IMG/VR virus record: IMGVR_UViG_3300045988_148545
Strand: one strand, 5' to 3'
From: a virus
Length of the DNA: 40,039 nucleotides
Made by a program: the position numbers and the translations under genes. The notes beneath the pieces were generated by a model. It saw only the letters and a list, made by a program, of their open reading frames with translations, did not search any database and was not told the DNA's origin. Shown here in pieces: positions 1 to 12,141 of the stretch. The number at the start of each line of letters is the position of its first letter. Position 1 is the first letter of the stretch.

Positions 1-99
1 ATGAAAGCTAAGTATCTATTATAATAAAGAAGAAACTAAGTATAAAAGGGGGCTAAAATAGTCCCCTTTATGTTAATGATATAGTTAAACTACGAGTTC
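1..99. repeat. Direct terminal repeat, copy 1 (exact duplicate of 39941..40039); overlap signature of a circular/circularly permuted genome
   Basis: Read directly: nt 1-99 are identical to the last 99 nt. Nt 1-24 (MKAKYLL*) are the 3' end of the endolysin ORF that starts at 39305. Confidence 0.97.
45..69. terminator. Hairpin between convergent endolysin (+) and integrase (-); possible bidirectional terminator
   Basis: AAAGGGGGC-N7-GTCCCCTTT forms a 9-bp stem with one G.T pair, flanked by A/T runs. It lies downstream of both stop codons. A duplicate copy sits at 39985..40009. Confidence 0.5.
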
Positions 100-122
100 G
101 TTGGTGCTTCGACTATATCATT
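75..122. other. Candidate attP for the serine integrase (48-bp imperfect inverted repeat)
   Basis: Perfect 11-bp arms AATGATATAGT (75-85) and ACTATATCATT (112-122). Further symmetric matches occur at pairs 88/109, 89/108, 92/105, 93/104 and 95/102. The symmetry centre lies between 98 and 99 (T98 C99, non-palindromic). The site overlaps the integrase stop codon. Confidence 0.45.
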
Positions 123-1704
123 CGCTAGAATCCCCTTTGTTCTTGGGCAGTTTCGGGAATAGCTCTAGCTTAAAATCATCTTGTCTTTGGTCTTTGAAGT
201 GTCCGTTGGCAGTTTTGGTATACACAACCTTATCCAGAATAGACTTCATTAAGTCATTTTTTAATTGAACATCATCAGAAGTTTTATAGATTTCCAAAAT
301 CTTTTTAGCCTTTGGTATAATCTCTTCCTGATGGCTAATTATTTCTCTCTCATTTGCTATTTCTTTATTAAGCTTAACAATTGCTTTCTCTGTAGAAGAA
401 ATGCTTTCAGAAACAGTTTTTTGTCGGTTCAGAAAAGTATCACTATCATATATTCCGTTTTCATAAGCTTCAAATACTTTTGTTAACTGGTTTTTGTATG
501 TTATTAATTGCTTTTGCTGTTCTTCCAAGAGTTTTGCCTTGGATTCCAAAACAGAAGTGTCATACTTGTTTGCTTCTTCCTTTATTTCGTATCCATCAAT
601 CCATTCCTTAATGGCAGTTAACAAAGCATCTTCAACAAGGTAAAAAGCAGAAGACACATTATGACATGTTTTTTCAGAGCATATTAGTGAAGCGGACTGA
701 CCTCTTTTTTGGTAAGGTCTTCTATACATACTTCTTCCACACATACCACATTTTATTACACCGGCAAGTGGATTGGTTATCGTTTTTGAAGGTCTTCTTG
801 GATTTCTGGATAATCTTTCCTGGGCCAAATTAAATGTGTCCTGAGATACAAGAGCAGGATGCTTTCCTTTGTATAGTCCATAGGATTCGTTACGTGTCCA
901 TTTATCGACGATAATTCCGTTTTCAACAACCTTTTTTCGCTTCTTTTTCCCAAAAACAATATATCCTAAATAATGTTCGTTTCTAAGCATGGTAGATATT
1001 GTTGGAATGGTCCAAACACCACCTAAGGGTTTAATTGAATATTCAGAATTTAACTTGTCTGCAATACGAGCTGTCCCTAAAAGTTCATAACTGCCATCTT
1101 CTTTTAGAATTCCCTTTGTATACCATTGAAAAATCAACTTTACAATTTCTGCTTCTCCCGGCTTAGGTTCCAGCCTATAACCTTTGGATTTTTTGTTCTT
1201 TACAATGGAATATCCAAATGGTGGTGTATGATGTATGTAATTACCTTCCTTGCAACTTGCTTCCATTCCAGCATGCAATCTTCTTTTAATAGTCTTATAT
1301 TCTCTTCTTGACATATACAAGCCAAATTCAAAATATTCCTGATCAAATTCATCTGTGGGATTAAATGTTTTCATCGGGGTAATGATTAAGGTATTGGAAT
1401 AAGTAAACGTCTTGGTAACTATTCCCTGATCAGAAGTATCACCACGGGCAAGACGCTCGATTTCCATAACAAGAACACCCTCCCATTTCCCATCAGATAC
1501 ATCATTGAGTAATCTCTGCATTTGAGGTCTTGCAGCAATGCTATCACCGGAAACAACCTCTTCATAGATTTCACCAATTGGCAAATTTTTCTTTTTTGCT
1601 AATTCAATTAATGTATCTCTATGACGTTTTAATGTTTCTCCAAAACCTTGCAGTTCTAACTCTCTATCAGCTCTGGATTTTCTTAAATAAATACAATAAG
1701 CCAT
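118..1704 (-). CDS. int: Large serine recombinase (phage integrase)
   Basis: 528 aa. N-terminal resolvase-type catalytic domain (YLRKSRAD with catalytic Ser, VMEIERLARGD), recombinase domain, Cys zinc ribbon (CGMCGRS...CSEKTCHN) and C-terminal coiled coil. SD AAAGGAG precedes the ATG. Confidence 0.95.
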   Translation of the reverse strand: MAYCIYLRKSRADRELELQGFGETLKRHRDTLIELAKKKNLPIGEIYEEVVSGDSIAARPQMQRLLNDVSDGKWEGVLVMEIERLARGDTSDQGIVTKTFTYSNTLIITPMKTFNPTDEFDQEYFEFGLYMSRREYKTIKRRLHAGMEASCKEGNYIHHTPPFGYSIVKNKKSKGYRLEPKPGEAEIVKLIFQWYTKGILKEDGSYELLGTARIADKLNSEYSIKPLGGVWTIPTISTMLRNEHYLGYIVFGKKKRKKVVENGIIVDKWTRNESYGLYKGKHPALVSQDTFNLAQERLSRNPRRPSKTITNPLAGVIKCGMCGRSMYRRPYQKRGQSASLICSEKTCHNVSSAFYLVEDALLTAIKEWIDGYEIKEEANKYDTSVLESKAKLLEEQQKQLITYKNQLTKVFEAYENGIYDSDTFLNRQKTVSESISSTEKAIVKLNKEIANEREIISHQEEIIPKAKKILEIYKTSDDVQLKNDLMKSILDKVVYTKTANGHFKDQRQDDFKLELFPKLPKNKGDSSE

Positions 1705-1766
1705 AGTATATCACTCCTTTATATTTGATTTTATTAAAAAATGGGTACAAAAATAACACCCAGCCT

Positions 1767-1795
1767 TTGCCAGATGTTCCATTATGTGATACAAT
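1767..1795 (+). promoter_or_regulatory. Sigma-70-like promoter (TTGCCA-17 nt-TACAAT, with TGn extension) pointing away from int
   Basis: -35 TTGCCA at 1767-1772, 17-nt spacer, TGaTACAAT at 1787-1795. No plus-strand ORF follows, only a terminator-like hairpin at 1828-1856. Confidence 0.4.
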
Positions 1796-1824
1796 ATGAC
1801 TTGTCTAGGGTGATATTGTATCAC
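1786..1824. repeat. 12-bp perfect inverted repeat GTGATACAATAT / ATATTGTATCAC with a 15-bp spacer
   Basis: Read directly in the intergenic gap between the SHOCT gene and int. Each arm contains a TGATACAAT extended -10-like element, one per strand. Confidence 0.9.
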
Positions 1825-1827
1825 TTG

Positions 1828-1856
1828 GAGCTGGTCCTTAGTGGCTGGCTCTTTTT
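1828..1856 (+). terminator. Plus-strand intrinsic-terminator-like hairpin
   Basis: GAGCTGGTC/GGCTGGCTC forms 9 pairs, 3 of them G.U, so it folds well only in plus-strand RNA. It is followed by TTTTT. Confidence 0.4.
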
Positions 1857-1866
1857 ATTTAAAATG

Positions 1867-2607
1867 TTATAGTTCGAGTAATTGTTTTTTCTTTAAATCA
1901 AATTCTGCTTGTGTGATGATTCCATCATCTAGTAAATTTTTGAATTTTCTTAGTTCATCAGCTGACGATAATTGTATATCTTTTTCAGAACTATTCGTTG
2001 ATTCAATCATTAAATCAAATTCAGCCATAATATTTTGAGCATTTGCCTGTGCGGTTTTAAAAATAATGCTATTAGATTTAGTGGAAGTAACAGTCAAAAA
2101 ATTTATAAGAATTTTAGGGAAAAATTCATTTTTTGTAACAACATTCAATGCATATTCCTTAATTTCGGTAACAACTTTTTTCTTCCCAGTAAGACCACCA
2201 ACAACAGCACCAACACCGCCAAAAAGAATCCCACCAGCAACAGCTCTACCAACACCACCTTTAGTTATTGATTCACCATCCTGGATTAACTCATAAGAAA
2301 CAACGTCATTAAAATTAAAAACAATATTTGATGTTCCATACATCCACAATTTGTGATTAGCATCAACTGAAAGCATTTTTTTGAAAGTTTTGGTTGGAGT
2401 AAAAATTTCAAGAAGCTCTTTGTTTTTTTCTGATTTAGATATGGCCATTCTAATTTCATCTGTTTTGTAATTTTTCCAAGACATTGTAATGATATATGGA
2501 TAGCATTTGGAAATACAATCTTTACAAATATAACCATCTGCTAAACTTTTCTTTGATTCATTACAATTACATACAGTACAAGTAGTACGTTTACTAAATA
2601 ATCCCAT
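1867..2607 (-). CDS. Zinc-ribbon / glycine-zipper / SHOCT-domain protein (lysogeny-operon accessory gene, function unknown)
   Basis: 246 aa. N-terminal CxxC...CxxC (CTVCNC...CKDCISKC). Central glycine zipper GGVGRAVAGGILFGGVGAVVGGLTG. C-terminal SHOCT-like motif ELRKFKNLLDDGIITQAEFDLKKKQLL. The start lies 12 nt after the immA-like stop. Confidence 0.8.
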   Translation of the reverse strand: MGLFSKRTTCTVCNCNESKKSLADGYICKDCISKCYPYIITMSWKNYKTDEIRMAISKSEKNKELLEIFTPTKTFKKMLSVDANHKLWMYGTSNIVFNFNDVVSYELIQDGESITKGGVGRAVAGGILFGGVGAVVGGLTGKKKVVTEIKEYALNVVTKNEFFPKILINFLTVTSTKSNSIIFKTAQANAQNIMAEFDLMIESTNSSEKDIQLSSADELRKFKNLLDDGIITQAEFDLKKKQLLEL

Positions 2608-2619
2608 AGAAACCTCCTT

Positions 2620-3096
2620 CTAATCATTTATATTTTTAATCACACCAACTGAATTATATCCAAACTCAATGATGTAATTTTTGTGTTTTATGTAGCAACC
2701 ATATTTATGCATATAAGCATTTATGGTGTCTGTCAGAAACTGCTCTGTTACGTTTAAGAATTCAGCAGTCTCATAAAAATTAGTGCAGTGGTTCTCATAA
2801 GCTGCAATAATGCTGTCTAGATTAATCAATTTCTGATACCCCCAAATCCTTGCTCTATGCTCCTGTTGGCGATTGGATGCAGAACTCATAGTTAATATAT
2901 TTCCATTAGAAGTATGATGATGTCCCATTTCTTCTGCCAAAACACAACGTTTCTGTGTAGAGTTTTCCAAACTATCACTTATACCAACAACACCGTCACA
3001 ATACAACCCTTTGATATTTGGGCTGTCAAAAGAATAATCTACAACTTTTATACCATCCTCGCAGGCTTCTGATTCTAATTGTTCTAACTGGTTCAA
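2620..3096 (-). CDS. ImmA/IrrE-family (DUF955-like) metallopeptidase, putative anti-repressor protease
   Basis: 158 aa, directly downstream of the XRE repressor as in ImmR/ImmA pairs. The motif region is LAEEMGHHH, i.e. EEMGH in place of canonical HExxH. Confidence 0.7.
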   Translation of the reverse strand: MNQLEQLESEACEDGIKVVDYSFDSPNIKGLYCDGVVGISDSLENSTQKRCVLAEEMGHHHTSNGNILTMSSASNRQQEHRARIWGYQKLINLDSIIAAYENHCTNFYETAEFLNVTEQFLTDTINAYMHKYGCYIKHKNYIIEFGYNSVGVIKNIND

Positions 3097-3147
3097 GAAA
3101 TCACCTCCCCACTAGAGTATACTTTTTAAGGTGTCCCATAAAAAGGA

Positions 3148-3465
3148 CTACTTTCTTTTATTCTTTACAAATTCAACGAAGTTTTTAATTTCTTCCATTT
3201 CTGCTTCTGAAAATTCCTCACCCTCAAAGTGTGCTGCAAGAGTGTTGACTTCTGGGAAAGGATTTGATGGTTTTCCCATTAAAAAATTCATATCAACGTT
3301 AAAAAAATCAGCAATAGTTTCTAAGGTTTCAAAATCAGGTTCTCTGTTTCCATTTTCGTACATACTAACAGTACTTTTTGAAATATCTAGCTTTTTAGCC
3401 AATTCCTGTTGAGTTAACCCTTCTCTTTTGCGTAAATATTTTAGCATATCAGAAAAATTATTCAT
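3148..3465 (-). CDS. XRE-family HTH repressor (CI/ImmR-like)
   Basis: I chose internal ATG 3465 (MNNFSDMLKYLRKREGLTQQELAKKLDISKSTVSMYENG...) because AGGAGGTC sits 5 nt upstream. The N-terminal extension in the ORF track is hydrophobic and implausible. Confidence 0.88.
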   Translation of the reverse strand: MNNFSDMLKYLRKREGLTQQELAKKLDISKSTVSMYENGNREPDFETLETIADFFNVDMNFLMGKPSNPFPEVNTLAAHFEGEEFSEAEMEEIKNFVEFVKNKRK

Positions 3466-3496
3466 AAGAAGACCTCCTTTTTTATATCTTAATATA

Positions 3497-3524
3497 AGTA
3501 TACACGAAATGTGAAAAAAAACAA
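3497..3524 (-). promoter_or_regulatory. Possible repressor-maintenance promoter (minus strand TTGTTT-16-TATACT)
   Basis: Reverse complement of 3519-3524 is the -35 element and of 3497-3502 is the -10 element. It overlaps a degenerate operator-like site, ATACACGAAATGTGAAA (3500-3516). Confidence 0.35.
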
Positions 3525-3545
3525 CAAAAAAATCACAAAAAGTGG

Positions 3546-3574
3546 TTGACATAGGTACACAAAACGTGTACAAT
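3546..3574 (+). promoter_or_regulatory. Early (lytic) promoter TTGACA-17 nt-TACAAT
   Basis: Consensus -35 at 3546-3551, exact 17-nt spacer, -10 at 3569-3574. It is divergent from the repressor gene. Confidence 0.65.
3555..3571. promoter_or_regulatory. Operator candidate: perfect palindrome GTACAC-N5-GTGTAC inside the early-promoter spacer
   Basis: Read directly. It occupies the spacer between the -35 and -10 elements. Related half-sites (ACAC-N5-GTG/CGT) occur at 3500-3516, 4077-4093 and 4110-4123. Confidence 0.55.
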
Positions 3575-3612
3575 ATAAGAGTAGCAAGGAGATGCAGGAA
3601 AGGAGAAAAGAA

Positions 3613-3753
3613 ATGGAATACGAAGAAATGAATTTAGCAGAATTATTAAAACAAACGACAGAAGAAAATCAAACAAGAAAAATCTTAGCAATCTTGGAAG
3701 AAAGCGAAGATTTGGAGAAAGCAAAAGAAAAAGTAAAAGCCCTACTTAAATAA
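3613..3753 (+). CDS. Small acidic helical protein (46 aa), first ORF of the early transcript
   Basis: Too short for the ORF track. ATG 3613 is preceded by AAAGGAG at a 7-nt spacing. Sequence: MEYEEMNLAELLKQTTEENQTRKILAILEESEDLEKAKEKVKALLK*. Confidence 0.5.
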   Translation: MEYEEMNLAELLKQTTEENQTRKILAILEESEDLEKAKEKVKALLK

Positions 3754-3764
3754 CTAAGTAGGGC
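3739..3764 (+). promoter_or_regulatory. 10-bp perfect stem hairpin (GCCCTACTTA-aataac-TAAGTAGGGC) enclosing the stop codon of the 46-aa ORF
   Basis: Read directly. No U-tract follows. A second GC-rich stem, GGGCGAC...GTCGCCC, lies at 3787-3821. Both are upstream of the cro-like gene. Confidence 0.4.
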
Positions 3765-3875
3765 GGTAAATAACAAAGACACACAAGGGCGACACTTCTT
3801 AACATTCCTGCTAAGTCGCCCAAGTGATTAAATTAATTATAACATATTATTAAAAAAAGTAAAGGAAGTGATAAA

Positions 3876-4076
3876 GTGAATACAAAAGTTATAGGACAAA
3901 GACTAATAGAACTAAGAGGGGAACGTAAAAGAGAAGAAGTTGCAAACGCAATTGGTGTAAGCAAATCAGCTATTGCAATGTATGAAGCAGGTGAAAGAGT
4001 TCCAAGAGATCCTCTTAAATTAAAAATAGCTAATTACTATAACAAAACAGTAGAAGAAATTTTTTTTGCTGAATAA
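3876..4076 (+). CDS. Cro-like XRE-family HTH regulator
   Basis: 66 aa, GTG start after AGGAAG. HTH segment: REEVANAIGVSKSAIAMYEAGERVP. Confidence 0.85.
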   Translation: MNTKVIGQRLIELRGERKREEVANAIGVSKSAIAMYEAGERVPRDPLKLKIANYYNKTVEEIFFAE

Positions 4077-4094
4077 GTACACGATACGTAAAAT
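4066..4094 (+). promoter_or_regulatory. Possible promoter TTGCTG-17 nt-TAAAAT overlapping the first 14-bp repeat
   Basis: -35 at 4066-4071, 17-nt spacer, -10 at 4089-4094. Confidence 0.35.
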
Positions 4095-4123
4095 ATTATG
4101 GAAAGCAAAACACGATACGTAAA
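4079..4123. repeat. Two exact 14-bp direct repeats ACACGATACGTAAA (4079-4092 and 4110-4123)
   Basis: Read directly. The starts are 31 bp apart. Each copy contains the palindrome TACGTA, and the first is preceded by GT, giving GTACACGATACGT, which resembles the 3555 operator. Confidence 0.9.
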
Positions 4124-4141
4124 GAAAAAGAGGAGAAACAA

Positions 4142-4345
4142 ATGGAAGATAAACAGAAAATATGCGATTTATTAGTACCAGTATTACAGGAAACAAGAGA
4201 TTTTCAGGAATTGGAAAGTTTGAAATACAACAAAGACAACGAAACAGTTGTGGCGACTTTCTGGTACAGAGCAGTGAAAACTGCAAATGTTCATATGGAT
4301 TCAGGAACATCAATGATTAGAGATATCATCGAACAGATTCGTTAA
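4142..4345 (+). CDS. Hypothetical early protein (67 aa)
   Basis: ATG preceded by GAGGAG. No recognisable motif. Confidence 0.7.
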   Translation: MEDKQKICDLLVPVLQETRDFQELESLKYNKDNETVVATFWYRAVKTANVHMDSGTSMIRDIIEQIR

Positions 4346-4419
4346 TTTATCTTATAAAACTGTTGACAAACCTCGTGCCTACAGCACAAGGAAAACCTCG
4401 GTAAAAGTCGTATCATTAT

Positions 4420-4434
4420 GATACCAAAACGAAA
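4420..4434. promoter_or_regulatory. 15-bp perfect palindrome GTATCATTATGATAC upstream of the RHH gene (operator candidate)
   Basis: Read directly. It ends 10 nt upstream of the RHH ATG at 4445, just 5' of the AAAGGAG SD. Confidence 0.5.
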
Positions 4435-4444
4435 GGAGTACAGA

Positions 4445-4561
4445 ATGATACAGACAACAATAAGAATACCAGTGGAGTTACACAAGAGGTTAAAGGAGCT
4501 GGCAAAGAAGAAAGGCTTAACAGTCAATGCCTTGATTGTGCAGGCGCTGTGGAAATTATAG
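4445..4561 (+). CDS. Ribbon-helix-helix (Arc/CopG/MetJ-type) DNA-binding protein, 38 aa
   Basis: Too short for the ORF track. MIQTTIRIPVELHKRLKELAKKKGLTVNALIVQALWKL* shows the beta-strand plus two-helix pattern typical of Arc-like proteins. SD AAAGGAG sits 6 nt upstream. Confidence 0.8.
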   Translation: MIQTTIRIPVELHKRLKELAKKKGLTVNALIVQALWKL

Positions 4562-4572
4562 GAGGATATACA

Positions 4573-4728
4573 ATGACATTAAAATTCAAAAAGCACAGTA
4601 ACGGCTGGAGCATTAAGAGAAAAAAAAGAGGACACGCAGACTACCAACCTTTTATTAGATGGTACAAGAACGAGCGGGCATTAAGAATTTGGTATCACAC
4701 ATTTTATACAAGAGATTTTCAGTTTTAG
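4573..4728 (+). CDS. Small basic protein (51 aa), hypothetical
   Basis: ATG 4573 preceded by GGAGGA. MTLKFKKHSNGWSIKRKKRGHADYQPFIRWYKNERALRIWYHTFYTRDFQF*. It starts 11 nt after the RHH stop. Confidence 0.45.
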   Translation: MTLKFKKHSNGWSIKRKKRGHADYQPFIRWYKNERALRIWYHTFYTRDFQF

Positions 4729-4883
4729 GAGAAACCACAATGGAAGATAAAAAGAAATAAAATATGGGCTGTGCTGGAACGTGATTAATAATTGTAATGG
4801 ATTACTTCATCAAAATGTAAGTAGGAATAGGACAAATTCAAATAAACATATCTTAATTAAAAAGAACAAAAGGAGGTTAGGGG

Positions 4884-5051
4884 ATGGTAGTAGAGGAATT
4901 TAATATCGGAAGAACACAAATCATCATTCATGATGATTGCATAGTGTCTAACGAAAAAGCAGAAGAAATTTTAAAGAGATTAGGGAATACTTTCCATAAT
5001 TATAATCTACGCAAAAGAGAAAGGGGTGATTTAATTGGTGGGAGCAATTAA
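4884..5051 (+). CDS. Hypothetical protein (55 aa)
   Basis: ATG preceded by AAAGGAGG. MVVEEFNIGRTQIIIHDDCIVSNEKAEEILKRLGNTFHNYNLRKRERGDLIGGSN*. Confidence 0.6.
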   Translation: MVVEEFNIGRTQIIIHDDCIVSNEKAEEILKRLGNTFHNYNLRKRERGDLIGGSN

Positions 5052-5220
5052 CAGCTTAAGAAACTTAAGGCAGACCTGCATTAAGTATTCAGGAAGTTGT
5101 AAGAGCTGTCCCTTGGGCAGACAGATGAACATTAATAACACTATGTGTCCGCATCTGACTAAGCCAATTAGTTGGACGGATGAAAAGACTACCGAAATGG
5201 TTGGAAAGATTGGAGGATAA
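5035..5220 (+). CDS. Small Cys-rich protein (C-x6-C-x2-C...C-x-H), hypothetical
   Basis: 61 aa, TTG start overlapping the preceding ORF. The cysteine spacing suggests a small metal-binding fold. Confidence 0.5.
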   Translation: MVGAINSLRNLRQTCIKYSGSCKSCPLGRQMNINNTMCPHLTKPISWTDEKTTEMVGKIGG

Positions 5221-5223
5221 AAG

Positions 5224-5412
5224 ATGATTAAGGTAACAGAAACAGAATTACTGCTGGAAGGAAATTTTTTGAGCATATTTTCAGAAACAGCATGCATACT
5301 TAGAAGTGTGCATAAAAAAACGATTGATGTGTTTGGACCAGAGTATGGCGAAATTATATATCAAAAAATAATCGCATCGGCAGATATGGATGAAGAGGAC
5401 ATTGAAAAGTAA
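5224..5412 (+). CDS. Hypothetical protein (62 aa)
   Basis: ORF in the forward gene train, with GGAGGA just upstream of the ATG. Confidence 0.6.
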   Translation: MIKVTETELLLEGNFLSIFSETACILRSVHKKTIDVFGPEYGEIIYQKIIASADMDEEDIEK

Positions 5413-5480
5413 CTTGAGAAGATGAAAACAGAAAGAATAAAAAATCTTAATGATCTGTTTTCAAAGTAAAGGAGCAAAAG

Positions 5481-5789
5481 ATGGAAGCAAACAGACTTGG
5501 AGTGAAAGAAATTAAAAGAAAAAAAGAGCCTGAATATACACCACTACATTCAAGCTCTCACAAAAACAATACACCTAAAGATTACCACATTATGGCTGAA
5601 AAGTACAGAGTACTTAACGGATTCAAGAACGTGGTAATAGGAGTAATAACAGGAGCAGTGATGTTAGTCAATGGCTGGATTGAGGTAGACAGCAAGGCAG
5701 GGCAGTTACTTGTGGCTCTGGGAATGGTGATACTGGTTACATTGATGATGCACTGCACGGACGAAATGTTGGAGGTGCAGAATGACTAA
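5481..5789 (+). CDS. Small membrane protein (two predicted TM helices)
   Basis: 102 aa. Hydrophobic segments VVIGVITGAVMLVNGWI and LLVALGMVILVTLMM. SD AAAGGAG. Confidence 0.65.
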   Translation: MEANRLGVKEIKRKKEPEYTPLHSSSHKNNTPKDYHIMAEKYRVLNGFKNVVIGVITGAVMLVNGWIEVDSKAGQLLVALGMVILVTLMMHCTDEMLEVQND

Positions 5790-6582
5790 CAAGGAATACA
5801 GGGAAGCAGAAGGAATATCAAGGTCAGACTTATTTAAAATATCAAGAAGTCCAAAACATTTTAAATATGAACAGGAGAACCCGGCAGAGCAAAGTAAGGC
5901 ACTATTGTTCGGAATAGCACTACATTCTTATGTCTTGGAACCTGAAAAATTTAAGGAAGAATATGCAATCATTCCAAATTGTGACAAGAGAACCAAGGCA
6001 GGAAAGGAAACATACAGACAGTTTTTGGCAGAAAATGAAGGAAAGTTTTTTGTAGAGCAGGACGACATGGACGCCATAATGCAGATGGCGGACTCAATCA
6101 ATGAAATACCAATTGCAAGAAAACTGCTGGAAGGAAAACATGAGCAGTCCTTTTTTTGGACGGATAAAATGACAGGTGAGAAATGCAAGTGCAGACCGGA
6201 CATAATGACAGAAATAGGTGGAACAACAATCATTGCAGACTTAAAGACCTGCGAAAGTGCAAGAACGGATATGTTCATGAAAAAGGCCGTGGAGTACGGA
6301 TATGACCTTCAGGCATACATGTACTGTGAGGGAGTGAGCAAAAACATTAATAAAAAGTGCTGTTTCGTGTTCATTGCCATTGAAAAAAAGCCACCTTATG
6401 CAGTTAACATTTTACAGGCTGATGAATACATGATGTTAAGGGGGCAGGACCTTTTCAGGGAGTATTTGGGAACATATCATTACTGCAGGGAAAATAACAA
6501 CTGGTATGGATACAACGGAATCAATGGAGACATAAACAGTCTTTCATTGCCGGCTTGGATAAGAAAAGATTACGAGAAATAA
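5782..6582 (+). CDS. PD-(D/E)XK-family exonuclease (RecE/DUF3799-like recombination exonuclease)
   Basis: 266 aa. GxALH motif (FGIALHSYVLEP), then CRPD...IADLKT, then the Y..Q..Y pattern. It lies next to an annealing-protein gene. Confidence 0.82.
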   Translation: MTNKEYREAEGISRSDLFKISRSPKHFKYEQENPAEQSKALLFGIALHSYVLEPEKFKEEYAIIPNCDKRTKAGKETYRQFLAENEGKFFVEQDDMDAIMQMADSINEIPIARKLLEGKHEQSFFWTDKMTGEKCKCRPDIMTEIGGTTIIADLKTCESARTDMFMKKAVEYGYDLQAYMYCEGVSKNINKKCCFVFIAIEKKPPYAVNILQADEYMMLRGQDLFREYLGTYHYCRENNNWYGYNGINGDINSLSLPAWIRKDYEK

Positions 6583-6596
6583 ATTAGGAGGACTAA

Positions 6597-8027
6597 ATGA
6601 ACATAACAAAAATAAAGATTAAGAACCTGTTTGGAATCAGGGAATATGATGCAGACGGAAAATCAATTGAATTAATAGGAAAGAACGGAGTGGGGAAAAG
6701 TTCCGTAATAGATGCAATAAAGTATGCGTTAACAAACAAATCCGACAGGGATTACATAGTAAGATCAGGGGAGGCTGAAGGCGAAATAATCATTGAAACC
6801 GACACCGGTTTAAGCATTGACAGAAAATGCAGGGTAAATCAGGCAGATTATAAATCAATCAAACAGTCAGGGGTCAGTGTTAACAGTCCTGAAACATTAT
6901 TAAGAGAATTATTCACGAACCTGCAGTTAAATCCGGTTGAGTTTTTACAAATGTCAAAACAGCAGCAAAACTCAATAATCTTAGACATGATTGATTTTGA
7001 CTGGGATTTAAACACCATAAGGGAATGGTTCGGAGAAATACCTTCATGGATTGACTACGATCAGAACATACTTAAGGTTTTGTCAGACATTCAGAGTGAA
7101 AAGGGTGAGTATTTTAAATCAAGACAGGACCTTAACAGGGAAATAAGAAACAAGAAAGCATTCATTGAAGATATAGCAAGTACAATTCCGGCAGAATATG
7201 ATGTTGAACGTTGGGAAAGGGCAAATCTTGGAGAAGCCTACAAAACAATCGAAACCATAAAGAGCAAGAACAATCAGATTTCAAGGGCAAGGCTAATCAT
7301 TCAGAATCAGGCAAACACGACAAGGGGAATAGATGCAGAAAGGGAGATAGCCACATCAGCTCTTGAAAAGGAAATTAGTGCAGAGGAAAAAAGAATAAGT
7401 GACACAGTGGCGGACTTAAAACATCAGATAGAACTCTTAATGGAACAGCAAAAAGCACTCTCTTTAAGAAAAGAAGAAAAATTAAGAGTGATAGAAGCAG
7501 AGCATGACAAAAAGATGGCTCAACACATTGCAGACTTAAAGGCATATGAGGAATATGCGAACATGGAGATTACGGACACATCAGAAATGGAAAGAGAAGT
7601 TTCCAGTGTAGAAAAGATGAAGGCTCACATTAACGAATATAGAAGAATGGAAAGACTTGAAGGTGAGGTTAAGCAGTTAATGGCACGTTCAAGTGAGCTT
7701 ACGGCAAAGATTGAGCTTGCAAGAAACCTTCCGGGCAAAATTCTGGAGGAATGTTCAATACCGATAGAAGGTCTTACTGTTGTTGATGGAATTCCATTGA
7801 TAAACAATCTTCCGGTAAGTAATTTGTCTGATGGAGAAAAGCTCAACTTGTGCGTTGATGTCGCAATTCAGAATCCAAACGGATTGCACATCATATTGAT
7901 TGATGGAATTGAGAGACTTGCGTCCGAAATGAGGGAAAAACTGTATAAGAAATGCAAGGAAAAGGGATTACAGTTCATTGCCACAAGAACAACGGATGAT
8001 GAGGATCTGACAGTAATAGAGTTATAG
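6597..8027 (+). CDS. SMC/Rad50/RecN-like AAA ATPase
   Basis: 476 aa. N-terminal Walker A GKNGVGKSS, long central coiled coil, C-terminal signature LSDGEK and Walker B ILIDGIERL. Confidence 0.85.
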   Translation: MNITKIKIKNLFGIREYDADGKSIELIGKNGVGKSSVIDAIKYALTNKSDRDYIVRSGEAEGEIIIETDTGLSIDRKCRVNQADYKSIKQSGVSVNSPETLLRELFTNLQLNPVEFLQMSKQQQNSIILDMIDFDWDLNTIREWFGEIPSWIDYDQNILKVLSDIQSEKGEYFKSRQDLNREIRNKKAFIEDIASTIPAEYDVERWERANLGEAYKTIETIKSKNNQISRARLIIQNQANTTRGIDAEREIATSALEKEISAEEKRISDTVADLKHQIELLMEQQKALSLRKEEKLRVIEAEHDKKMAQHIADLKAYEEYANMEITDTSEMEREVSSVEKMKAHINEYRRMERLEGEVKQLMARSSELTAKIELARNLPGKILEECSIPIEGLTVVDGIPLINNLPVSNLSDGEKLNLCVDVAIQNPNGLHIILIDGIERLASEMREKLYKKCKEKGLQFIATRTTDDEDLTVIEL

Positions 8028-8037
8028 GAGGAATACC

Positions 8038-8877
8038 ATGGAAGAAAGAAATGAGGTTGTGGTGCAGGCTGGAAACAGTCTGCCAACAAGTGACATAAAT
8101 CAGGGAACAGTTGCAATAGAAAGTAGCAGGGCGGTAGCTGAAGCGCAGGGAAAGTTATTGATAGCAAAGAAATTTCCAAGAAATGAAACGGAAGCATTCT
8201 CAAAGGCGATACAGAGTTGTCAAAGAACAGGTCTGGCTTCAAAGGCATTTTATTCATATCCAAGAGGAAAGGAAACAATTACAGGAGTAACAATAAGATT
8301 TGCAGAAGAATTGGCGAGATGTTATGGAAATCTGGATTATGGAATAAAGGAATTGTCAAACAGTAATGGTCAGTCGGAAATGCAGGCATATTGTTGGGAT
8401 TTGGAAACAAACACCATGTCGTTGCAGAATTTTACAAATAAGCACATTCGTGAAAGCAAGTACGGAAACACTGAACTGAAAAGTCAAAGGGACATTTATG
8501 AATTAAATGCAAATATGGGAGCAAGAAGATTGCGCAGCAGAATTCTTGCGATTCTTCCTCCGGATTTGGTGGAAGCCTGCATTCAGGAATGCAAGAAGAC
8601 GCTTGCAGGTGACAACACAATTCCATTCATTGACAAGGTCAACAATATGGTTGTGGCATTCCAAAAGCTGGGAGTGTCAAAGGAACAGTTGGAGAAGAGA
8701 CTAAACCATACGGTTGAATCAATCACGGAACAGGAATTGCTTGAAATGATAGGCATTTTTAACGGAATAAAGAACAAGGAAACAAAAGTATCAGAATGGT
8801 TTGAGCAACCGAGGACGGCAAGTGCCCTGACGGAAGCAATAAACGCAGAAATTAAGGAGGATGCCAAGAATGAATAA
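8038..8877 (+). CDS. Single-strand annealing protein (Bet/Red-beta / RecT superfamily)
   Basis: 279 aa. Blocks resemble Bet-type recombinases as I remember them (IAKKFPRNE, IRFAEELARCYGNL, AYCWDLETN, RDIYE, GARRLRSRIL). Context is exonuclease and SSB genes. Confidence 0.75.
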   Translation: MEERNEVVVQAGNSLPTSDINQGTVAIESSRAVAEAQGKLLIAKKFPRNETEAFSKAIQSCQRTGLASKAFYSYPRGKETITGVTIRFAEELARCYGNLDYGIKELSNSNGQSEMQAYCWDLETNTMSLQNFTNKHIRESKYGNTELKSQRDIYELNANMGARRLRSRILAILPPDLVEACIQECKKTLAGDNTIPFIDKVNNMVVAFQKLGVSKEQLEKRLNHTVESITEQELLEMIGIFNGIKNKETKVSEWFEQPRTASALTEAINAEIKEDAKNE

Positions 8878-9310
8878 GGTTACATTAATAGGGCGTTTAA
8901 CACGGGACCCGGAAGTGAGATTTTCACAGAGTGCCAATGGGCAGATGGTGGTTGCAAAATATAATCTTGCAGTTAACAGAAGATTTAAGACTGATGGACA
9001 ACCTGATGCAGATTTCATAAACTGCACAGCCCTTGGAAAGACAGCAGAATTTGTTGAAAAATACCTGTTCAAGGGAATGAAGATAGCAGTTGTCGGTGAA
9101 TGGAGAACCGGAAGCTATGAAAATAAGGATGGCAATAAGGTGTACACAAACGAATGTCTTGTTCTTGAACACGAATTTGTTGAAAGCAAGGGCAGTGACA
9201 ATTCATCAGAAAAAGGTCAGAAGGCAAAACAGCGGACAGTGCCGACAGGGGACGGATTCATGAATATTCCTGACAATGTGGATGATTCCGGTCTACCATT
9301 CAATTTTTGA
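8870..9310 (+). CDS. ssb: Single-stranded DNA-binding protein
   Basis: MNKVTLIGRLTRDPEVRF... OB-fold pattern, Gly/Ser-rich linker and acidic tip DDSGLPFNF. I chose ATG 8870, 9 nt after AGGAGG. Confidence 0.93.
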   Translation: MNKVTLIGRLTRDPEVRFSQSANGQMVVAKYNLAVNRRFKTDGQPDADFINCTALGKTAEFVEKYLFKGMKIAVVGEWRTGSYENKDGNKVYTNECLVLEHEFVESKGSDNSSEKGQKAKQRTVPTGDGFMNIPDNVDDSGLPFNF

Positions 9311-9756
9311 TGATACAGATAGACACGAGAGAAAAACCACAGGCCATTGCAAACATAAAAGCATTTTTTGATAAGAACAACATTGAATACATTGACAAGA
9401 AGATGGACATAGCAGATTATTGCGTGATTGGAAAGGAAAACCTTGTGATAGACAGAAAGAGAAATCTACAGGAGGTGGCGCAAAATCTGTGCAGTAATGA
9501 CAAAAGCAGATTCTGGAGAGAAGTAAGGCTGGCTTATCAAAATCATGTCAGGATGATTGTTCTTGTAGAGCAAAGCGGAATAAATGACTTAAAGGATGTT
9601 AGAAACTGGCAGTCAAAATATCAGAGATTAAGCGGAGCAAGACTACAGGAAGAAATGTACAGAATAGCAATGGCTTATGGAATTGAATGGAAATTTTGCC
9701 ATAAAAACAGCACTGGAAAGGTAATATGCGAATTATTGGGTGTTGATTATGGATAA
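9310..9756 (+). CDS. ERCC4/XPF-Mus81-like nuclease (putative structure-specific endonuclease/resolvase)
   Basis: 148 aa. DTRE...ADY...IDRK pattern resembles the ERCC4 GDxn-ERKxxxD core. ATG 9310 overlaps the ssb TGA. Confidence 0.55.
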   Translation: MIQIDTREKPQAIANIKAFFDKNNIEYIDKKMDIADYCVIGKENLVIDRKRNLQEVAQNLCSNDKSRFWREVRLAYQNHVRMIVLVEQSGINDLKDVRNWQSKYQRLSGARLQEEMYRIAMAYGIEWKFCHKNSTGKVICELLGVDYG

Positions 9757-10246
9757 GGATGAAATAAAACAATCATGTTCAATGAAGGAAGTGATTGGAA
9801 ATTATGGGTTGGTTCCAAACAGAGCGGGATTTGTCAGGTGTCCATTTCATCAGGGTGACAGATCCCCATCAATGAAAATATACAGGGATTCGTTTTACTG
9901 CTTTGGCTGCGGAGCCGGAGGGGACGTGTTTGATTTTGTTAGCAGAATGGATAACCTTTCATTTAAGGAAGCTTACCTGAATCTTGGCGGTGAGTATCGG
10001 CACGAAAGGAAAAATTTTTCATACATGCGAAAAATTCAACACTCAAGAACGCAGCGAAAAAAGAAAGAGCAGAAACTTACGCTAATAAGGCATAGATTGG
10101 AATATTTATCATTAATGATTGAGTTTTACAAAAAAATAAAACTTGATTCAGAACCCCTGTCGGACCCGTGGTGTCTTGCAGAGAACAAGCTGACAACACT
10201 TTGGGGCGAATATGATTACTTGTTGGAAAGAGGTGGGAAGATTTGA
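9749..10246 (+). CDS. CHC2 zinc-finger protein (DnaG-primase N-terminal domain type)
   Basis: CPFHQGDRSPSMKIY...FYCFGCGAGGDVFDFV is the classic CHC2 primase zinc finger. The start could instead be GTG 9740. Confidence 0.8.
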   Translation: MDKDEIKQSCSMKEVIGNYGLVPNRAGFVRCPFHQGDRSPSMKIYRDSFYCFGCGAGGDVFDFVSRMDNLSFKEAYLNLGGEYRHERKNFSYMRKIQHSRTQRKKKEQKLTLIRHRLEYLSLMIEFYKKIKLDSEPLSDPWCLAENKLTTLWGEYDYLLERGGKI

Positions 10247-12141
10247 ATTTTGAAAAAATGGATAAAAAAGAGCTTTTATCCATACGTACAATTGAAAGCA
10301 TAATGGACGAAGAGGATCTTCTTGCCAGGGAAATAATGATTCAGGAAGCAATGGACAGATCCGAGCAGTTAAAATGCATGACTAAGTTCAAGACACTCAT
10401 GAACGCAGCGAAAAAAGAAGAAAAAAGATTAATGGAATTGGCAAAAAAAGACATTCGCGGAGGTTCAAAGACAAACAATAATGTCATTGATTTTTCAGGA
10501 TGTGAAGAATCTTACGATTGCGGTGCGTGGGTGGCAAACGATAGCGGAGTGAGAACTTACACGGTACAGGGAGAAAGGCTTGCCTGTTATCACCCAATTC
10601 TCCCGGTGGCAAGAATGATAAACATTCAGACAGGAAAGGAAAAGGTTAAGCTTAAGTTTAAAAAGGGCACAATCTGGAAAGACATAGTCGTGGACAAGTC
10701 AATCATAGCCTCCAGCTCAAAAATAGTGGCATTAGCCGATTATGGAGTGTCCGTGACAAGTGAAAATTCAAAGGCATTGGTAAGTTATCTTTCTGATGTT
10801 GAAAATATGAACGTTGAGGAAATAGAAGTGAGAAATTCCACAAGTAAGTTGGGATGGATAAGAGGAGACTTTGTTCCATATGACGTGAATGTCTATTTTG
10901 ATAATGAGTTCAACTTTAAGATGCTTTATGAATCAATAAGAACGGCAGGCAACAGGGAAAAATGGTATGACCTTGTGAAGAAAATCAGGACAAAGGGAAG
11001 ATTGGAGCCAAAGATTTACATTGCTGCAGCATTCGCATCAGTTCTAATAGAGCCATTGAATGCATTGCCGTTCATTGTAAATCTCTGGGGAGACACGGGA
11101 AAGGGCAAGACAGTGGCATTAATGCTGGCAGCATCCATTTATGCCTTCCCCGGTAATAACGAATACGTGACGGATCCAAAATCCACCATAACGGCATTGG
11201 AGACAAGAACAAATTTCCTAAACAATTTTCCCGTGCTGATTGATGACATGTCCCAGATAAAAAACAAGTTTGATGATGACTTTTCAACATTGGTTTATTT
11301 TCTATGTTCAGGAAAGGGAAAGGAGCGTTCAAACGTCAATTTAGGAATCAATGCAACCAATTCCTGGAGAAACGTGTTTCTGACCAATAACGAGCATTCT
11401 CTTGTAACGGAAACAATGCAGGGCGGAGCGGTGAACAGAATCATAGATGTTGAAATGAGCGAAGGCTACATATTCGACAATGGAAATCAGGTGGTTGAAC
11501 TAATCAAGAAGAATTATGGTTTTGCAGGAAAAGAATTCATTGAACTTGTAAAGAACATGGGAACAGATGAAATATCCAAGATACAAAAGGATTTTCAGGA
11601 AAGAATCACGAAAAGGGCAGAACAGCTTGGAGTGGAAAAGGAAGAAAAACAGATTCTTCCAATGTCAATCATTCTGACAGCTGATAAGCTGGCAACAGAA
11701 AACCTGTTTCAAGACGGGCAATACTTGAACTTTGCCGAATGCTTTGAATTATTAAAGGATAAGGATGCAGTGTCGGAAAATCAAAGAGCCTATGAGTACA
11801 TGATTTCAGAAATTGGAATAAACAAGAACAATTTCATCATTCCGGGAACAACCGGAGACGATTACAGACAGATTTGGGGAACAATTGAAAGCGGATATGC
11901 AGTAATTCTTAAAAACATATTTGACAAGATATGCAAGGAAGCAAACTGTTCCAGCAGAACGTTTTTATCGTGGGGCAGAAAAAAGGAACTGGTAAAGGTT
12001 GGAAAAGATGGAAAGAACACAATCACAAAAAGAATAAATGGAATGGTACAAAGGTGTGTTTGGCTTAAATTACCTGACGATGGTAACGAGTTTGTGGACG
12101 TGGAAGATGGGCAGATTCCATTTGATTTTGAACAAAAATAG
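10243..12141 (+). CDS. DUF927-type primase-associated helicase (SF3-like replicative ATPase)
   Basis: 632 aa. Walker A WGDTGKGKT and Walker B VLIDDM. TTG start sits 5 nt after GAGGTGGG. Confidence 0.8.
   Translation: MNFEKMDKKELLSIRTIESIMDEEDLLAREIMIQEAMDRSEQLKCMTKFKTLMNAAKKEEKRLMELAKKDIRGGSKTNNNVIDFSGCEESYDCGAWVANDSGVRTYTVQGERLACYHPILPVARMINIQTGKEKVKLKFKKGTIWKDIVVDKSIIASSSKIVALADYGVSVTSENSKALVSYLSDVENMNVEEIEVRNSTSKLGWIRGDFVPYDVNVYFDNEFNFKMLYESIRTAGNREKWYDLVKKIRTKGRLEPKIYIAAAFASVLIEPLNALPFIVNLWGDTGKGKTVALMLAASIYAFPGNNEYVTDPKSTITALETRTNFLNNFPVLIDDMSQIKNKFDDDFSTLVYFLCSGKGKERSNVNLGINATNSWRNVFLTNNEHSLVTETMQGGAVNRIIDVEMSEGYIFDNGNQVVELIKKNYGFAGKEFIELVKNMGTDEISKIQKDFQERITKRAEQLGVEKEEKQILPMSIILTADKLATENLFQDGQYLNFAECFELLKDKDAVSENQRAYEYMISEIGINKNNFIIPGTTGDDYRQIWGTIESGYAVILKNIFDKICKEANCSSRTFLSWGRKKELVKVGKDGKNTITKRINGMVQRCVWLKLPDDGNEFVDVEDGQIPFDFEQK

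Follow-up and report, generated by a model that had tools for sequence, protein, structure and literature searches.

A zinc-ribbon, PH_gly_zipper and SHOCT protein encoded between immA and the integrase gene of a temperate myovirus prophage is a candidate exclusion-type protein related in its terminal modules to the TP901-1 Orf2 family

The closest described systems to the gene treated here come from lactococcal phages. Orf2 and Orf3 of TP901-1 are identical to SieF7/2AB of lactococcal P335 phages, and orf2 and orf3 cloned together lowered the efficiency of plating and the plaque size of two skunaviruses and gave complete resistance to P087 and WRP3 (Ruiz-Cruz et al. 2020, PMC7693887). The same article also describes lysogens as more, not less, sensitive to nisin and lysozyme, and the Sie2009 (Tuc2009) and Ltp-type (TP-J34) proteins as encoded between repressor and integrase, expressed from the prophage, membrane-associated and blocking DNA entry (PMC7693887). 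SNIPE is a membrane-bound defence nuclease that cuts injected phage DNA, and its homologues can carry DUF4428 or PH domains in place of the transmembrane (TM) anchor (bioRxiv 10.1101/2025.11.03.685801). Here we analyse one gene of a 40,039-nucleotide stretch of viral DNA (IMG/VR record IMGVR_UViG_3300045988_148545, hereafter the window). This target gene lies between the gene for an ImmA-like metalloprotease and that for a serine integrase, and an earlier note, made from the sequence alone, had described its product as a zinc-ribbon, glycine-zipper and SHOCT protein with a candidate role in superinfection exclusion or abortive infection. With slightly less than even confidence, we propose that it is an exclusion-type protein that would be expressed in lysogeny and act from the cytoplasmic side of the membrane, perhaps together with its ImmA-like neighbour; the anti-phage function is itself suggested by analogy.

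The order of genes in TP901-1, namely cI, a metalloprotease gene (orf3), the gene for a PH-type and SHOCT protein (orf2) and a serine integrase gene, is also the order of the window, where XRE repressor, M78 metalloprotease, target and serine recombinase genes follow one another on the minus strand. The SHOCT domain of TP901-1 Orf2 is homologous to that of the target (hhalign 97%, E 3.5e-11), and profiles of the two families align with 99.8% probability (E 1.3e-29) through their zinc-ribbon and SHOCT ends. The relatives of Orf2 include proteins built from DUF4428, bPH_3 and SHOCT, whose N-termini (MGFFDLKATCSVCN..., starting MGFF or MGLF) hardly differ from those of PH_gly_zipper proteins. Both TP901-1 Orf2 and the target lack a signal peptide and any classical TM helix. 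The bPH_3 and PH_gly_zipper variants moreover occupy the same two niches, next to int and next to the tape measure gene. Where TP901-1 has orf2, a Lactococcus lactis prophage has a PH_gly_zipper version, preceded by an HExxH protein, and in a Clostridium perfringens siphovirus the gene immediately upstream of the tape measure gene is a bPH_3 version. This sequence-based link to the TP901-1 system, by modular homology and gene order, is the strongest support for the proposed role and is what is new here, with the qualification that the core domains of the target and of this closest tested system differ.

The core is bPH_3 (PF14470) in Orf2 whereas it is PH_gly_zipper (PF27000) in the target, and TP901-1 Orf2 itself carries neither a zinc ribbon nor a glycine zipper. 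The partner proteins match weakly by BLAST around the metal motif (E 0.002), which reads EEMGHHH in the ImmA-like protein of the window and LHELGH, of the HExxH type, in TP901-1 Orf3. The phage-resistance phenotype is known only for the lactococcal pair. As read from the translation, residues 54-61 of the ImmA-like protein are AEEMGHHH, with the first His of the M78 HExxH replaced by Glu. It is also worth recording a 192-residue SHOCT protein of Lactococcus lactis annotated as 'prophage pi2 protein 02' (P0321), in which KKKK comes after a hydrophobic LVALGVFAFAA; this protein is possibly a third version of the architecture.

The target belongs to a large family. It matches phrog_888 (function unknown) over its full length, residues 1-246 on positions 1-271 of a 271-position profile (E 3.8e-60), a word-indexed search returned 180 homologues, and a profile of the central domain recovered about 6,275 clusters at 50% identity, some of them with the domain standing alone or with several ribbons; it is therefore not a chance open reading frame. 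Relatives in IMG/VR number 396. The protein is identical to a 'SHOCT domain-containing protein' of Eubacterium ventriosum (WP_118037402.1), and the identical protein (P0001), for which PF27000 (PH_gly_zipper) and PF09851 matches are precomputed, is found on at least 1,000 contigs at NCBI and in 2,282 blocks of an assembly index. Members of 158-162 residues in the target's 90% cluster were considered as truncated copies and rejected, as they are ImmA sequences brought in by a clustering artefact. An NCBIfam scan of the target protein gave nothing, and domain scans detected no enzymatic domain, no DUF4041 and no GIY-YIG nuclease in it. The family is thus catalogued (Pfam, PHROGs, NCBI names) yet uncharacterised.

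The three elements named in the earlier note are all present, each with a correction. At the N-terminus, C10, C13, C28 and C31 form two CxxC pairs that are invariant in an alignment of 54 homologues; this copy scores 16.5 bits (E 0.0077) against DUF4428 (PF14471), under the gathering cut-off of 27.8 bits, whereas 53 of the 54 family members match that domain, the best with E 4.8e-10. A profile search of PDB sequences found only weak generic zinc-ribbon matches. Ahead of the ribbon, an MG[LIFM]F N-terminus (target residues 1-6, 2590-2607) recurs in 111 of 254 family members and is retained even by stand-alone domains without a zinc ribbon (P0154, P0226). We take this N-terminus to resemble the first residues of the membrane-binding helix of PspA/Vipp1.

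The glycine zipper is likewise real as a motif but not free-standing. In an AlphaFold2 model of the target built with an alignment (mean predicted local distance difference test score, pLDDT, 83.8), a small ribbon leads into a helix (49-68) and strands (73-118); then come an unstructured stretch at 121-143 with pLDDT <50, strands at 152-169, a long helix at 181-209 and a SHOCT helical hairpin. A model of the domain alone agrees with that of the full protein. In these models the zipper is a loop inserted in the beta-rich PH_gly_zipper domain. Its small-residue face runs i, i+4 over six turns (G118, A122, G126, G130, A134, G138), with a second set at G117/G125/G133/G137/G141; the hydrophobic stretch thus carries the (G,A,S)xxxGxxxG repeats of a transmembrane glycine zipper. 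It is the hydrophobic peak of the protein (Kyte-Doolittle 1.77 over 19 residues) and its most conserved part: nine zipper G/A/V positions are invariant across the 54 homologues, along with the four Cys, K177 and several SHOCT residues. Just before the zipper, in an ELxEDG motif, residue 109 (2281-2283) is Q here and E in 98% of the 54 homologues. Because the stretches on either side of the zipper are parts of a single domain predicted with confidence, a passage of the loop through the bilayer as an ordinary TM helix is not feasible, and this interpretation was rejected on topology despite the fitting hydropathy and small-residue face; we infer from the model a re-entrant hairpin or an oligomer-dependent structure instead. 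The predicted order of secondary structure, strands at 73-169 and then the helix at 181-209, fits a PH-like fold. The bPH models of Pfam matched none of the family members scanned, and Foldseek against BFVD returned only unnamed SHOCT phage proteins.

The C-terminal SHOCT domain is clear, but its description as an oligomerisation motif goes further than the literature: oligomerisation was proposed for SHOCT, and an experiment in the original description of the domain gave no support for it (PMC3581485). The commonest fusion partners of SHOCT are band-7/SPFH proteins (PMC3581485), and SHOCT-like domains are predicted to anchor proteins at the inner leaflet and co-occur with PSP envelope-stress components (PMC11237479).

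The family itself offers some indication of the side of the membrane on which the protein would lie. N-terminal hydrophobic (TM) segments occur in 19 of 254 members, mostly as a pair of helices with a K/R-rich stretch after them, and some lie ahead of the zinc ribbon; P0176, P0259 and P0201 have them adjoining the ribbon. Given the even number of helices and the positive-inside rule, the ribbon and the PH_gly_zipper domain of these TM variants are expected to be cytoplasmic and membrane-tethered. TM hairpin and zinc ribbon appear, from these sequences, to be interchangeable as N-terminal modules. By extension, the target protein would be located at the cytoplasmic face, where its loop could insert into the membrane.

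The window corresponds to a complete temperate prophage of a PBSX-like myovirus, with genes for terminase, portal, major head, sheath, tube, XkdN-like, tape measure and endolysin proteins; a megablast of positions 1-12000 against GenBank phages gave no match. The features of the lysogeny region are collected in Table 1. As the earlier note had it, the target reading frame begins 12 nt after the immA stop codon (TAG, 2620-2622); the spacer (2608-2619, AAGGAGGTTTCT on the coding strand) contains a strong ribosome-binding site. Spacing and strand suggest that the target is co-transcribed with the repressor as the third cistron of a repressor-immA operon. The guanine plus cytosine content of the target gene is 29.7%, against 36.0% for the window.

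Table 1. Coordinates of the target gene, its protein domains and the surrounding features in the window
Feature	Position	Strand	Evidence and remarks
Target gene	1867..2607	-	246 aa, ATG start; zinc ribbon + PH_gly_zipper + SHOCT; identical to WP_118037402.1
N-terminal four-Cys zinc ribbon (DUF4428-type), residues 10-53	2449..2580	-	Cys core CTVCNC...CKDC at 2515-2580
Central beta-rich domain with C-terminal long helix (PH_gly_zipper), residues ~70-210	1978..2400	-	AlphaFold2 pLDDT >90 on both sides of the loop
Glycine-zipper loop, residues 117-141 (25 residues), flanked by K116 and K142-K144	2185..2259	-	translation GGVGRAVAGGILFGGVGAVVGGLTG
C-terminal SHOCT domain, residues 217-244 of 246	1876..1959	-	Pfam SHOCT (PF09851) 34.7 bits, E 1.4e-8, cut-off 27
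Ribosome-binding site AAGGAGG	2613..2619	-	5 nt before the target ATG; read from sequence
ImmA-like M78 metalloprotease gene	2620..3096	-	Peptidase_M78 31.2 bits (cut-off 22); phrog_87 E 8.6e-35
XRE/HTH_3 repressor (ImmR-like), heading the lysogeny operon	3148..3465	-	Pfam HTH_3 E 3.8e-20; phrog_8 and phrog_3 repressor families
Large serine recombinase (prophage integrase), downstream of target	118..1704	-	Resolvase + Recombinase + Zn_ribbon_recom; phrog_95 E 3.3e-102
Terminator-like hairpin + T-run	1827..1862	+	-13.3 kcal/mol, z -3.06; minus strand -6.5 kcal/mol, z -1.26
Terminator-like hairpin, between target gene and int	1755..1778	- (operon strand)	-13.2 kcal/mol, z -2.06; consensus match only
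Mosaic block: repressor C-terminus + immA + target + 42 nt	1825..3265	-	blastn against L004-L007, 98-99.7% identity

The target is inherited with the immunity genes. By blastn, the block from 3265 to 1825 is 98-99.7% identical in four other prophages (L004-L007), and its flanks are about 90% identical or unrelated. Those four prophages carry a tyrosine integrase or an insertion sequence element in place of the serine recombinase; since the block is kept in prophages with other integrases, the target gene travels with the immunity genes, not with int. The breakpoint at 3265 falls inside the repressor gene, so that only the C-terminal part of the repressor lies within the block, and the block-sharing prophages indeed have the repressor C-terminus and immA in common and differ in the helix-turn-helix (HTH) part and the type of integrase. 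The final element of the conserved block, which ends at 1825, is the hairpin at 1827-1862; as it folds well only as plus-strand RNA, it would halt transcription opposing the lysogeny operon. A related prophage of Eubacterium ventriosum (L005/L006 12045-16727, tyrosine integrase) is inserted right beside tuf-fusA-rpsG-rpsL.

Elsewhere the family behaves as a mobile phage accessory gene. Among 60 de-replicated viral loci, with lineages defined by clustering, the downstream gene is an integrase in 13, from nine integrase lineages, which bears out the association with int and repressor genes that the earlier note had wished to see surveyed. It is a tape measure gene in 22, and this apparent excess shrinks to about three lineages on clustering, 20 of the 22 loci coming from one phage lineage. 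The upstream gene is an anti-repressor in eight loci, ImmA in six and XRE in about five. Homologues stand beside the tape measure gene in CDMH1, phiCDKH02, THSA-485A and gut myoviruses; one follows holin-amidase (lysis) genes and another lies beside a cI/cro region, and the copies in tail modules are followed by terminator-like hairpins, like independent inserts. The gene may thus be called dispensable for integration and immunity, as had been suggested, in that its homologues change place among unrelated sites of phage genomes. In 23 bacterial genomes the neighbours of homologues are mainly XRE repressors, integrases and ImmA. As a further observation, PH_gly_zipper and bPH_3 versions recur at most two genes from the tape measure gene in several myoviruses and a siphovirus (L001, L002, L003, L088, L093, L096, L186), and a DUF4352 gene adjoins the homologue in two different phages (L002 3336-3863; L093 4808-5419).

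The model that we favour, at the strength given at the outset, takes its function from the TP901-1 analogy. The target would be a prophage accessory protein ('moron'), made in the lysogen from the third cistron of the repressor-immA operon, that stays cytoplasmic and is seated on the inner face of the cell membrane. Its four-Cys zinc ribbon would serve as an N-terminal adaptor, the beta-rich PH-type domain would present a lysine-collared 25-residue glycine-zipper loop dipping into the inner leaflet, and the SHOCT helical hairpin would provide a second contact with membrane or partner. In this position the protein would interfere with infection by other phages at a membrane step, most likely genome entry, possibly acting jointly with the ImmA-like metalloprotease encoded 12 nt upstream, like the Orf2/Orf3 pair of TP901-1. 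The exclusion or abortive-infection role put forward in the earlier note is thus partly supported, by a tested pair in the same slot that gives resistance when cloned, and the observations do not separate the two modes of action.

Several observations weigh against this model. No similarity between the central domain and the bPH_3 domain of Orf2 was detected (hhalign probability 0.25%); with central domains unrelated, the analogy rests on the terminal modules and gene order, and SHOCT and zinc-ribbon modules are widespread and promiscuous. Foldseek searches of the PDB with the full and domain-only models returned nothing below E 0.5, leaving the PH fold without confirmation, and the zipper loop has no confident predicted structure. 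An ImmA gene is adjacent in a minority of homologues only; since most lack this neighbour, a two-component mechanism cannot be general. One homologue lies among non-phage genes, and some relatives are in non-phage or unclear contexts. The defence-island association that had also been envisaged fails: the neighbourhoods of the 23 genomic homologues show no consistent signal, with scattered matches mostly to HTH proteins, and we reject this hypothesis; the target protein likewise matches no family of PADLOC-DB v2 at E up to 1. Finally, literature searches found no characterised PH_gly_zipper protein and no experiment on any, so the earlier statement that no function is known for this exact domain combination still holds.

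The same features can be read in other ways. The near-invariant small residues at i, i+4 spacing over six turns, in a segment whose length and hydrophobicity would allow it to span the bilayer, would suit an abortive-infection pore former, an inner-face protein whose glycine zippers form an oligomeric channel on infection and depolarise the cell, with processing or release by the ImmA-like protease as a possible trigger. Glycine zippers, as Kim et al. reportedly described in 2005, are typical of channel-forming helices. The disorder of the zipper in the monomer model is what would be expected if its structure needs an oligomer or the membrane, and a protease gene lies directly upstream. However, the zipper is flanked by strands of one folded domain, so that spanning would need unfolding or a hairpin, and the TP901-1 orf2 family, with the same terminal modules, confers resistance without any zipper. 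A pore former made constitutively from the repressor operon would also be risky, and we consider this explanation unlikely. We are similarly doubtful that the protein serves the life cycle of its own phage, whether by a membrane action aiding tape-measure-dependent genome delivery, in tail assembly, in lysis timing or as a signal to the ImmA/repressor switch. A role of this kind would fit the repeated occurrence of the two versions, PH_gly_zipper and bPH_3, next to tape measure genes of myoviruses and siphoviruses, the copy that follows holin-amidase genes and, in this window, the inheritance of the gene in one block with immA and the repressor C-terminus. In this prophage, however, sheath, tube, XkdN-like and tape measure genes are directly successive with no target-family gene among them, so the protein is not a required tail component; positions across the family vary widely, the hairpins that follow the tail-module copies give these the look of independent inserts, and the tape-measure-adjacent loci come almost entirely from the one lineage noted above.

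A role apart from phages would be that of an envelope-stress fitness factor, which stabilises the membrane from inside in the manner of PspA and protects the host against membrane-active compounds. The MG[LIFM]F N-terminus, which we take to recall the start of the PspA/Vipp1 helix, would be in keeping with it, as would the predicted membrane localisation of SHOCT-like domains, their co-occurrence with PSP components (PMC11237479) and the frequent fusion of SHOCT to band-7/SPFH (PMC3581485). Yet no PSP, band-7 or stress-regulator gene was seen beside homologues, either in the 60 viral loci or among neighbours in bacterial genomes; homologues associate with phage modules, the phenotype of the nearest tested relative is anti-phage, and the greater sensitivity of lysogens to nisin and lysozyme, as given in the lactococcal article (PMC7693887), runs the other way. 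This explanation is the least probable of those discussed here. Returning to exclusion at the membrane, a bolder and improbable extension is that the zinc-ribbon, PH-type and SHOCT proteins, whether their core is bPH_3 or PH_gly_zipper, make up a single large class, so far unrecognised, of cytoplasmic-side exclusion proteins that recognise the tape-measure-driven entry complex. If so, this would explain the repeated insertion of both variants next to tape measure genes, the zinc ribbon held in common with SNIPE-type injection-site nucleases, and the conservation of the zipper loop, which would plug or distort the entry channel.

The question matters because of the abundance of the protein: public assemblies contain the identical sequence in over 2,000 sample blocks, with its function unknown in every database, and its domain family extends through Firmicutes prophages with thousands of clusters. 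This uncharacterised family is tied by gene order and by the modules in common to its only tested relative, TP901-1 orf2/3. If confirmed, the proposed function would add a common inner-face exclusion class to the few membrane-level anti-phage mechanisms of Gram-positive gut bacteria, and would help to explain the limits of phage host range in clostridial and dairy systems as well as in the gut microbiome.

Genes of the Sie2009 and Ltp type share with the target the slot between repressor and integrase, but homology to Sie2009 was examined and rejected (hhalign probability 0.2%). Sie2009 consists of an N-terminal TM anchor and an external domain, and Ltp is a surface lipoprotein; unlike these, the target has no N-terminal hydrophobic segment, neither signal peptide nor lipobox, and a zinc ribbon of the cytoplasmic type. 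Glycine-zipper membrane segments, such as those of C19orf12-like proteins and Gly-zipper lipoproteins, present a (G/A)xxx(G/A) face over about 24 residues as the target does, and 45 of 54 members give a weak Pfam match to the C19orf12 zipper region. In the target, however, the zipper is predicted to be a loop in a soluble-type beta domain of a cytoplasmic phage protein, so the likeness is at the level of the motif and not of homology. With SNIPE only an adaptor logic would be common, as its DUF4041 and GIY-YIG nuclease are both absent from the target. In that logic, TM hairpins stand in for the zinc ribbon in the PH_gly_zipper family, as DUF4428 or PH domains do for the TM anchor among SNIPE homologues.

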